This document shows positions 9,316 to 10,311 of a DNA stretch of 11,600 bases, one piece after another. Below the pieces are notes generated by a model that was given only the letters and a program-made list of their open reading frames with translations, made no database searches and was not told the DNA's origin. Numbering within the stretch: position 1 is the stretch's first letter; each line of letters starts with the position of its first letter. Origin of the DNA: a virus; UHGV virus genome UHGV-0196356; one strand, given 5' to 3'. Made by a program: the position numbers and the translations under genes.

Positions 9316-9355
9316 TGGGGCCGTGGCGGGTGCGTTAAGCCCCGGTATGGCCCCA
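9316..9355 (+). other. Intergenic-region imperfect hairpin immediately after gIV (terminator and/or packaging-signal candidate)
   Basis: TGGGGCC ... GGCCCCA outer stem with inner CGGG/CCCG pairing. Ff phages carry the central terminator and packaging hairpin at this position. Confidence 0.45.
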
Positions 9356-9464
9356 TCAAGAACCAGATTTTACGTCTCACCACGGAGCCTCTATATGGCC
9401 TTAAAACTGACAGGATATGAACAGAAAGACATCTTCTAGGTGATTCAATTACTTAGAGGTTTTT

Positions 9465-9713
9465 ATGTCTGTAAAAAGTAGGTGGCGCGATCGACTTCCC
9501 GGTGGTCGCCTGAAGTCTTACCGTCGTGTTGGTTCACATTTTACCAGTTGTTCCAGGTGGTTTGATAAATCACCGTCCTGGTATCGCAATATGATGATGA
9601 CCCGGCCAGAGCGCCGTGAAGTCAGAAAGCTTCTCAATCAGGTTGTACGTGGCCGTGACGCTGACGGCATCGCATTTCCGGTCAGCAACAAGCCATTTGC
9701 ATGGCGGTGGTGA
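9465..9713 (+). CDS. Hypothetical small basic Arg/Trp-rich protein (82 aa)
   Basis: ORF with GAGG 5 nt upstream of the ATG. Very basic (many R, K, W). Sits between the phage intergenic region and dif. Function unknown. Confidence 0.45.
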   Translation: MSVKSRWRDRLPGGRLKSYRRVGSHFTSCSRWFDKSPSWYRNMMMTRPERREVRKLLNQVVRGRDADGIAFPVSNKPFAWRW

Positions 9714-9758
9714 ACATTTTTAGCCGCTAAAACTTCATGCTGACGTAATTATCGAAAA

Positions 9759-9799
9759 CCCCGTACAGCAACAAAACTTGTTTTTGTTGCTGTACGGGG
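9759..9799. terminator. Perfect 18-bp-stem hairpin, a candidate bidirectional terminator between convergent ORFs
   Basis: CCCCGTACAGCAACAAAA-cttgt-TTTTGTTGCTGTACGGGG; a T-tract follows on the minus strand (TTTTCGAT). Confidence 0.6.
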
Positions 9800-9863
9800 T
9801 TGGCCAAGCCGCAACAGTACTCTATTTTTCTTTGGAGTTAATTGCGGCGCGGCTAGGGATGTA

Positions 9864-10109
9864 TCAGACTTTAATCTTAACTACTTTTTCAGTGCCGGTC
9901 ATAAAACTAACCAGCTTCTTGCGGCCATCGGGATACTCTTTAATGACACATCCTTCTGGCGTATTTTTTTCAGCGTAATAAATAGGGACGCCACTAAGAA
10001 GACAGGCTCGGGCTGCTTCACCGACATCATGTTCTAGTTGCTGCTCGAAAACAGTCAAGAACTCTGCTTCCTCTGATGGTGTCATTTCAGCTAGATATGA
10101 TAAGTCCAT
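9864..10109 (-). CDS. Hypothetical small acidic protein (81 aa)
   Basis: ORF convergent with 9465-9713 and terminated at the 9759-9799 hairpin. Acidic composition. Weak RBS. No family recognised. Confidence 0.4.
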   Translation of the reverse strand: MDLSYLAEMTPSEEAEFLTVFEQQLEHDVGEAARACLLSGVPIYYAEKNTPEGCVIKEYPDGRKKLVSFMTGTEKVVKIKV

Positions 10110-10311
10110 AAATGCTCATGCCTTCTGTAATTCATTGCTTAGTAACAATGATGAACAGGCCTGATTGGTGAGGTCAGGCTGTTCACTTACTGCTGACAGA
10201 CATTTGATTCTGATTCGTTTGGAGAAACGGATGATTTTGAATCATTGTCGATAGTAACCAGTTGACGGCCAGTGTCAACGATTCCCGCCAGATTCTGCCA
10301 TCCTTACCATT

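Follow-up and report, generated by a model that had tools for sequence, protein, structure and literature searches.

A mosaic accessory slot beside dif in a filamentous prophage of Escherichia coli: a leader-preceded basic gene, a two-hairpin block and possible links to IncP-type plasmids

The window analysed here, i.e. the whole 11,600-nt stretch of DNA filed as UHGV virus genome UHGV-0196356, is an E. coli chromosomal segment with a filamentous prophage integrated at dif, and the present report concerns its region 9316–10311, located between the end of phage gene gIV and dif. With confidence that is evenly balanced, we read this region as a mosaic accessory slot of a dif-integrated inovirus that consists of four independent parts, part of which would interface with IncP-type plasmids. 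The four parts would be a cassette of a short upstream open reading frame (uORF) and a gene for a basic protein, an operator (O_B) for the plasmid protein KorB, a two-hairpin block acting on the + strand, and a cargo gene for an acidic protein with its own leftward promoter; the biochemical activities of these parts are what we infer throughout. An initial annotation had described the region as a module between the phage intergenic region and dif that carries extra genes for an 82-aa basic and an 81-aa acidic protein on opposite strands, separated by a long perfect hairpin. Both genes turned out to be real, they lie where the intergenic DNA of Ff phages, IKe and I2-2 is non-coding, and the module is bounded by a packaging-signal-like hairpin on the left and by dif on the right. 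Beyond what had been noticed before, the interval contains the uORF, the O_B site, a second hairpin (hairpin B) and a promoter-like site on the minus strand (Table 1). That the genes exist had been known before (as hypothetical proteins and YPO2280a); new here, from computation, are the leader ORF with its helix and the strand-specific two-hairpin block, as well as a large sequence-defined family of temperate-phage proteins behind the basic protein and two apparent links to IncP-1-type plasmids, namely the operator and an orphan antitoxin homologue. In the literature on YpfPhi and CUS-1 we found no mention of the uORF, the RNA helix or the wider family of the basic protein.

Gene content of the slot and its possible plasmid connections

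The basic and the acidic ORF are genes under purifying selection. For the basic ORF, the ratio of non-synonymous to synonymous substitution rates (dN/dS) was 0.08–0.21 relative to seven relatives, the variable codon positions comprise 72 of 82 third positions versus 42 first and 38 second positions, and the length of 82 aa is kept in 49 of 49 copies (window plus fetched loci; 25 distinct coding sequences). The acidic ORF gave a dN/dS of 0.10 relative to its plasmid copy, at a dS of about 1, and is intact in all phage copies.

The slot in which they reside is highly variable. CUS-1 of strain UTI89 has three stretches in common with the window, 9394–9685 (basic ORF, 86%), 9754–9828 (hairpin) and 10150–10339 (98%), with another gene replacing the acidic ORF, and ETEC-2264 combines a CUS-1-type virion module with both ORFs. 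Morganella and Xenorhabdus phages, which have a Rep_trans replication protein and other virion modules, carry the basic ORF after the secretin gene, followed by other cargo, and in Pantoea there are only ~125 nt from the basic ORF to dif. The main UPphi clade, represented by UM146, has neither ORF, two unrelated + strand genes for proteins of 102 and 77 aa being present together with the retained hairpin block. In the UM146 slot (positions 5286–5945 of locus L068), the 102-aa product is acidic and the 77-aa product Cys-rich (CxxC…CxxC), and the hairpin block lies between the two genes. They are probably the published h1 and h2, the two unknown genes that UPphi901-type phages harbor at a position without coding DNA in IKe and I2-2 (Shapiro and Putonti 2020, PMC7307601). 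Equating the window ORFs with h1 and h2 was considered and rejected, the UM146 main clade having different genes.

On the basis of homology over its full length, an identical size of 82 aa and a shared location after gIV, the basic protein belongs to the YPO2280a family, with 84% identity to the Y. pestis copy (NCTC5923) and 87% to the CUS-1 (UTI89) copy. YPO2280a is listed as having no predictable function in a review on YpfPhi (PMC4266046). In our searches the basic ORF likewise gave no match in Pfam, NCBIfam or PDB and none to a PHROG with a function; a weak JetB/DUF2398 match (E 6e-4; Pfam/NCBIfam/PADLOC scans) was taken as chance, and profile matches of the family to Prp4 and VP6 fragments in PDB were not meaningful. 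An exhaustive profile search brought together 135 clusters of unannotated basic proteins of 50–146 aa with the C-terminal core ...sPsWW..RPxRR...G.DpD..FP..KPHxYYW. Where genomic context is available, family members belong to tailed phages, in which they occupy short cassettes of opposite orientation close to the terminase or within the early region, and one resides in an integrase-bearing element of an alphaproteobacterium. In the tailed-phage cassettes the family member is followed by another gene of ~58–74 aa, in a moron-like position (9001–9258 in locus L051 and 8001–8225 in L065). As the AlphaFold2 model of the basic protein was poor (pLDDT 50), we confine ourselves to the assumption that the protein is probably cytoplasmic and binds nucleic acid.

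The basic ORF is preceded by a conserved leader uORF, present in 21 of 21 distinct upstream sequences, which comprises 13–14 codons, ends with G-Y-E-Q-x-D-I-F-stop, and is separated from the basic ORF by 22–29 nt (22–26 nt in 18 of the 21). Among the seven conserved uORF codons, five third positions but no first or second position vary (Morganella left out), all changes being synonymous. The end of the uORF is able to base-pair with the translation start region of the basic ORF, including its ribosome-binding site and AUG. An inner 12-bp helix (9433–9444/9448–9459), predicted in the minimum free energy (MFE) as well as the centroid structure of the single-sequence fold, contains the uORF stop codon and the Shine-Dalgarno (SD) motif GAGG, and an outer helix added by RNAalifold pairs GACAU (9428–9432) with AUGUC (9465–9469), the AUG of which is the start codon of the basic ORF. 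Over 17 sequences, 93% of the cells of the inner helix were paired versus 34–57% in slid controls, and three pairs were changed on both sides. Synonymous-only variation and a conserved, covarying helix are the sequence hallmarks of a leader ORF with translational coupling: a ribosome ending translation of the 14-codon leader would melt the helix that buries the SD and AUG of the basic ORF, so that the basic protein would be made only via translational coupling; leader-dependent control of its synthesis would also be possible. Since G-Y-E-Q lies outside the helix, the uORF peptide itself may matter. A more speculative and rather doubtful possibility is that G-Y-E-Q-x-D-I-F acts as a sensing (arrest) peptide controlling a founding member of a large phage protein family. 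We know of no inducer for the uORF, and G-Y-E-Q-x-D-I-F resembles no arrest peptide known to us. The same RNA segment (9428–9469) was also flagged as terminator-like, with a UUUUU tail, in our terminator scan.

The acidic ORF opens the first of the two connections to plasmids. Its product matches phrog_21003 over the full length (E 4e-55), and homologues with 80% identity are encoded on 41-kb IncP-1-like conjugative plasmids of E. coli and Salmonella, in the kleE/korA-incC-korB stability region; others are found on an Erwinia plasmid (75%), on Burkholderia and Zymomonas plasmids (42–51%) and on a metagenomic chromosome (53%), all over the full length. In five contexts the homologue lies directly upstream of a gene for a zeta toxin/AAA_33 protein of ~196 aa, overlapping it in four and separated by a 28-nt gap in Burkholderia. 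The toxins beside the 75% (Erwinia plasmid) and 53% (metagenome) homologues are themselves mutually homologous (44% identity), and the 196-aa zeta-family protein of pEC187_3-type plasmids is WP_019842075.1. By homology, the acidic protein is thus related to the antitoxin-position proteins of a short zeta-toxin/AAA_33 module. The plasmid kleE-antitoxin-toxin operon has O_B-like sites on both flanks, and in integrase islands the acidic homologue occurs alone, flanked by two perfect O_B sites. Considering the position of the homologues upstream of a plasmid toxin and the solitary state of the phage copy, we read the acidic ORF as an orphan gene of antitoxin type whose target would be a plasmid toxin. 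Its product would neutralise a zeta-family plasmid toxin and would thereby spare the lysogen, or a phage in the course of infection, the effects of plasmid addiction or abortive killing. Phage-borne orphan antitoxins have a precedent in the DarG-like genes of T4-like phages (PMC11825919).

Neither window ORF reached the curated threshold of a Pfam or NCBIfam model, and PADLOC was likewise uninformative for both. Three further candidate relationships of the acidic protein were discarded: a PF05047 (L51_S25_CI-B8) match with an E value of 0.043, far under the cut-off and taken as chance; PDB profile matches to CPAP G-box repeats, which cover a 'PDG' beta-hairpin only and are not meaningful; and homology to the YPO2281-like 65-aa protein of CUS-1 or to an 86-aa Morganella protein, where a short PDG motif is all that is shared (hhalign probability 3–10%). 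The latter protein is encoded in the slot of a Morganella morganii phage (8515–8775 in locus L004) and has a YPDGxKK beta-hairpin motif as in the acidic ORF; the same slot encodes a 65-aa protein (9105–9302) with a weak match (E 0.01) to PF21716, 'probable addiction module antidote'. There may be an antitoxin-like cargo theme at this slot.

The second connection is the O_B site itself. It equals the 13-bp O_B consensus TTTAGCCGCTAAA in 13 of 13 positions, or in 15 of 15 if the flanking T/A is included, and conforms to the palindrome TTTAGC(C/G)GCTAAA; the consensus is quoted in PMC2848598 and the O_B core was used in PMC11790492. Only ~3.5e-4 perfect 13-mers are expected in the window. The site is found at the orthologous place in E. 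coli, Pantoea and Brenneria phages, and CUS-1 and YpfPhi carry a perfect 15-bp O_B inside gIV (UTI89 locus 9356–9370; Y. pestis loci 3284–3298), which is kept in the Brenneria phage though nearby third codon positions differ. A Brenneria-type inovirus contig (IMGVR_UViG_2574179710_000002, 8177 nt) even has three perfect O_B sites (101–115, 6508–6522 and 7487–7501), situated upstream of gII, within gIV and after the YPO2280a-like gene; for the plasmid pEC187_3 we counted nine. KorB, a clamp dependent on cytidine triphosphate (CTP), enters the DNA at O_B and can travel over as much as 1.5 kb (PMC11790492), a range that spans the whole accessory region. The operator would load the ParB-type KorB clamp of a co-resident IncP-1 plasmid onto the phage DNA; neither korB nor incC was found in the window. 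The recurrence of a perfect KorB operator in these phages hints at a link to IncP-1-type plasmids.

Table 1. Positions of the features in and at the borders of region 9316–10311 (window numbering).
Feature	Position	Strand	Details
Packaging-signal-like hairpin	9312–9359	+	immediately 3' of gIV stop; inverted repeat I2, 19-nt arms, 84% complementary
Conserved leader uORF, MALKLTGYEQKDIF-stop	9395–9439	+	14 codons
RNA structure pairing uORF end with ribosome-binding site and start of basic ORF	9428–9469	+	predicted from fold and alignment
Basic Arg/Trp-rich protein, YPO2280a family	9465–9713	+	82 aa, isoelectric point (pI) 11.7, 15 Arg, 5 Trp
Perfect KorB operator (O_B) of IncP-1 plasmids, TTTTAGCCGCTAAAA	9718–9732		4 bases past basic ORF stop
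Hairpin A	9757–9801	+	arms 9757–9776/9782–9801, perfect 20-bp stem, 5-nt loop
Hairpin B	9803–9853	+	inverted repeat I10, 12-bp stem, 27-nt loop
Acidic protein, orphan homologue of antitoxin-position gene of plasmid zeta-toxin-family module	9864–10109	-	81 aa, pI 4.8
Conserved block adjoining attP	10150–10311		common to CUS-1 despite differing neighbour cargo
Sigma-70 promoter-like site toward acidic ORF	10251–10278	-	TTGACA, 16 nt, TACTAT; 10/12 consensus matches
dif (attR), right prophage border	10312–10339	+	exact 28-bp match

A number of points weigh against reading the region as an accessory slot with plasmid interfaces. The searches assign no function to the basic protein, its structural model is poor, and part of the apparent peptide conservation of the leader may be RNA constraint, as D-I-F-stop overlaps the helix. 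The promoter of the acidic ORF is proposed from a consensus match, no zeta-type toxin gene lies beside this ORF or anywhere in the window, and its product matches neither the epsilon family nor any Pfam model, lacking sequence or fold resemblance to canonical epsilon (a three-helix bundle) or PezA. That the small plasmid protein would act as an antitoxin is predicted from its gene position. The window contains only one O_B and no KorA operator, and the 15-mer occurs at about chance frequency in a very large viral collection, so that the case for the operator rests on the small window, the conservation at orthologous places and the multi-site phages. Finally, no strain with the window variant was among the 60 listed of the 121 E. 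coli records matching the antitoxin-toxin-korA-incC-korB segment of the plasmid. About half of these records were chromosomal matches, with 80–90% identity, and presumably represent the antitoxin part only.

Such considerations lend some weight to an alternative that we nevertheless regard as unlikely, namely that the acidic ORF and the O_B site are inert leftovers of recombination with an IncP-type plasmid and that the region is a dumping ground by attP. The variability of the slot among related phages would be in line with this, as would the missing plasmid co-occurrence among the matches listed and the finding that DNA homology of the region to the plasmid is confined to the acidic ORF and the operator. 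Against it stand the strong purifying selection on the acidic ORF, at a dS of about 1 between the phage and plasmid copies, and its intact reading frame in all phage copies; likewise, the operator is perfect and orthologous in three genera, with further perfect copies in related phages, up to three in 8.2 kb. Conversely, the parts could be combined to a plasmid-sensing anti-addiction device, in which plasmid KorB bound at O_B would silence the nearby promoter of the orphan antitoxin, and loss of the plasmid, or infection of a cell that carries one, would allow the antitoxin to disarm the zeta-family toxin. We consider this elaborate scheme rather doubtful.

A strand-specific two-hairpin block between the genes

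The hairpin noticed in the initial annotation is indeed perfect and real, yet its stem measures 20 bp rather than 18 bp; for comparison, 30 shuffled versions of the window gave perfect inverted repeats of at most 10 bp. Together with hairpin B it forms a conserved block of ~100 nt that is kept behind differing upstream genes, hairpin A persisting in the main UPphi clade, where the gene ahead of it is unrelated. In the consensus fold of eight variants, the base of hairpin B is invariant and its upper pairs covary. The pairing is strand-specific: in 9 of 10 relatives, two to three pairs of hairpin A are G.U on the + strand and thus A.C on the minus strand, and the MFE of the RNA is about -25 kcal/mol for the + strand versus about -15 kcal/mol for the minus strand, the + strand folding better by ~10 kcal/mol in 9 of 10. 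This asymmetry argues that the + strand is the one on which the element acts, be it as rightward mRNA or as packaged single-stranded DNA (ssDNA). The perfect stem of hairpin A is confined to the window lineage, where it amounts to -34 kcal/mol and is followed by GGUUGGCC, without a U tract, on the + strand and by UUUUCGAU, with UUUU, on the minus strand. Now that the pairing is perfect, the minus strand too can form a strong stem, which is followed by UUUU and would suit the halting of a convergent transcript. Our terminator scan limited stems to 20 pairs and required a T-rich tail, and hairpin A is therefore unlisted there.

As to its role, the two-hairpin block could be a minus-strand origin or, equally, an RNA 3' end or terminator structure of the long rightward operon. 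The former would fit because of the missing U tract on the + side, the place after the packaging signal and the parallel to the Ff phages.

These features also bear on the proposal of a toxin-antidote or regulator-antiregulator pair made up of the basic and the acidic protein, with the hairpin as shared bidirectional terminator, to which we attach very little credence. The two genes are adjacent, similar in size and opposite in charge, and they occur together in ~17 complete E. coli genomes, on two virion backbones; in addition, the hairpin of the window lineage is perfect and has its U tract on the minus side. The part of this proposal that survives is the toxin-antitoxin setting of the acidic homologues, whose partner, where present, is however the zeta-family P-loop protein of ~196 aa and not the basic protein. 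What speaks against a pair is that both ORFs are widely found singly: CUS-1/YpfPhi, Pantoea, Morganella and Xenorhabdus phages have the basic but not the acidic ORF, and acidic homologues occur on plasmids and islands that lack the basic ORF; we therefore do not regard the two as a pair. Nor do they conform to a type II toxin-antitoxin operon, being convergent, not co-transcribed, separated by two hairpins and inconsistent in their co-occurrence. The idea of a bidirectional terminator is only partly supported as well, considering the preference for the + strand in 9 of 10 relatives; even in ETEC-2264, which has both ORFs, the hairpin is weak on the minus strand (-16.8 versus -30.4 kcal/mol on the + strand).

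Prophage backbone, replication origin and attachment sites

The gene order of the prophage is Ff-like, with gII (Phage_CRI), gV, coat genes, gIII, gVI, gI (Zot) and gIV (secretin). By sequence comparison, the phage is a dif-integrated inovirus that combines an IKe/I2-2-like virion module with YpfPhi/CUS-1-like replication genes, in agreement with the published architecture of UPphi phages (PMC7307601). Its virion module is 88–89% identical to that of the main UPphi clade, and the exact window variant was found in four complete E. coli genomes at ~99% identity or more. Window positions 9214–9342 match 'gene IV, morphogenetic signal' of phage I2-2, and the packaging-signal-like hairpin is the left border of the module; beyond the packaging signal we found no sequence similarity of the region to I2-2 or IKe, and similarity to CUS-1 begins only from 9394. 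A helix-turn-helix (HTH) regulator of the phage is encoded elsewhere (2866–3318). In the window strain, hipA is internally deleted (window 729–1101): window 729–877 and 877–1101 correspond to positions 685–833 and 1758–1982 of strain LSN03-016011/A, which has an intact hipBA beside the same prophage.

The probable plus-strand origin is a hairpin at 2821–2844 (GTGCAGT-GTTGGT^AAT-ACTGCAC), between the HTH regulator and a 140-aa ORF. In two other genomes, partial tandem duplications invariably resume at AATACTGCAC, within the loop of this hairpin, joining gII (…CGCGGT|AATACTGCAC) or gV (…GATGGT|AATACTGCAC) to it, probably as expected from rolling-circle mis-termination at GGT pseudo-sites. A plus-strand origin inside 9316–10311 was accordingly discarded, since the duplication junctions put the nick site at 2832/2833. 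Related prophages also show series of incomplete copies, consisting of the regulator and a portion of gII or gV, before a full copy (3508–4116 in locus L001, 1–3563 in L003).

The left hybrid att site lies at ~1001–1033, and attP (1001–1094 plus 10312–10322) folds into a forked hairpin of the CTXphi type, built from two dif-like sites in inverted orientation, in which XerC and XerD arms can be recognised: GGTGCGCATAA, the XerC arm, is base-paired to the inverted TTGTGCGAACC at 1084–1094, the XerD arms form a stem (1021–1044/1057–1080), and a 9-nt/3-nt bulge lies between the arms. The stem 1021–1044/1057–1080, with TTTTC, is also terminator-like for a leftward 257-aa gene. On the other side, the block 10150–10311 is 98.4% identical to UTI89 CUS-1, compared with only 86% (DNA) for the basic ORF, and its + strand folds as ssDNA with a z score of -2.3. 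The Rfam scan yielded nothing near threshold in the region; a match to the OrzO-P antitoxin sRNA at 10153–10249 on the minus strand, within the 5' leader of the acidic ORF (E 0.55, 22.8 bits versus a gathering score of 60), is probably chance.

The vicinity of attP had also raised the idea that XerCD is activated by one of the small proteins in the manner of XafT of TLCphi, or that one of them serves as an excision or directionality factor at the att sites. Both small genes adjoin attP/dif, the basic ORF is located 0.37–2.2 kb upstream of dif in every fetched locus, in inoviruses of three backbones, and the charge of the basic protein would allow DNA binding. The profile searches proposed in the initial annotation returned no DUF3653/XafT, small HTH or excisionase match for either ORF in Pfam and NCBIfam at E values up to 1 and 10. 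Moreover, the attP is of the CTXphi type, and the forked-hairpin route is known to need host XerCD only, without a phage factor, whereas XafT acts by direct XerD activation at an attP that lacks a proper XerD site. The family to which the basic protein belongs has no exclusive link with Xer recombination, since it has members in tailed phages and in an integrase-bearing element, which do not use Xer, and in the main UPphi clade integration at dif takes place although the basic ORF is missing. Taken together, we find an Xer-helper role highly improbable. The remaining suggestion, that the ORFs are no genes but conserved non-coding origin structures, could point to the origins of Ff phages at this position and to the richness of the region in hairpins, but can be dismissed almost entirely in view of the codon-position pattern and dN/dS of both ORFs, the invariant 82-aa length, distant homologues at the protein level, and the mapping of the plus-strand origin elsewhere; only the stretch 9757–9853 may have an origin role.

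Implications and comparison with known systems

Attachment-site-adjacent accessory genes of integrating filamentous phages are of interest as the site of cholera toxin in CTXphi, and the YpfPhi/CUS-1 genes at the slot considered here have been carried along as of 'unknown function' since 2002–2007. Relatives of this phage group use conjugative pili as receptors. Under the anti-addiction scheme, filamentous phages of this group would be wired into regulatory and addiction circuits of IncP-type plasmids. If the plasmid link as such is real, a chromosomal filamentous prophage would read and counter the control and addiction systems of broad-host-range resistance plasmids. This would have consequences for plasmid stability, for plasmid-dependent phages as a means of combating resistance plasmids, and for how the reported effects of YpfPhi and CUS-1 on fitness are seen. 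Otherwise we are dealing with an ordinary variable cargo slot. The orphan copy of an antitoxin-position gene, the recurring KorB operator and the leader-gated YPO2280a family with at least 135 clusters provide testable handles.

The closest relatives of the slot are those of YpfPhi (Yersinia pestis) and CUS-1 (E. coli K1), where the YPO2280a homologue has the same length of 82 aa and the same place after gIV and before attR; the window copy differs in standing behind an IKe/I2-2-like virion module, and the next gene in CUS-1 is another one, a YPO2281-like ORF on the + strand. With the UPphi phages the prophage shares the Lineavirus-like core, YpfPhi-like gII and gV and the integration at dif, while representing a rarer variant with unrelated slot genes. 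XafT of TLCphi is similar in being a small protein encoded beside the att site of a dif-integrating element, but differs in its DUF3653 match, in its attP type and in that the basic family is not confined to Xer-using elements. The uORF resembles leader ORFs of the ermC/cat type, or those of simple coupling, in being brief and conserved and in base-pairing through its 3' end with the SD and AUG of the following gene. The minus-strand origin hairpins [B] and [C] of Ff phages, which RNA polymerase recognises, likewise are two adjacent strand-specific hairpins downstream of the packaging signal; in the window, no similarity to I2-2 or IKe and no promoter-like motifs were recognised in the block, and a gene lies between the packaging signal and the hairpins.

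Comparison with plasmid systems reveals a similar mixture. As in epsilon/zeta and PezAT modules, the acidic homologues are encoded upstream of, and overlapping, a zeta-family gene in plasmid stability regions, yet the toxin is a short zeta/AAA_33 protein of 196 aa, the acidic protein is unlike epsilon and PezA, and toxicity as well as neutralisation are predictions. With counter-defence antitoxins of phages, the acidic ORF has in common that the phage copy comes without a toxin. The KorB–O_B system of RK2 and other IncP-1 plasmids, finally, shares the exact operator core with the window, the difference being that the site here resides on a filamentous prophage, where any action of KorB would have to occur in trans from a co-resident plasmid.

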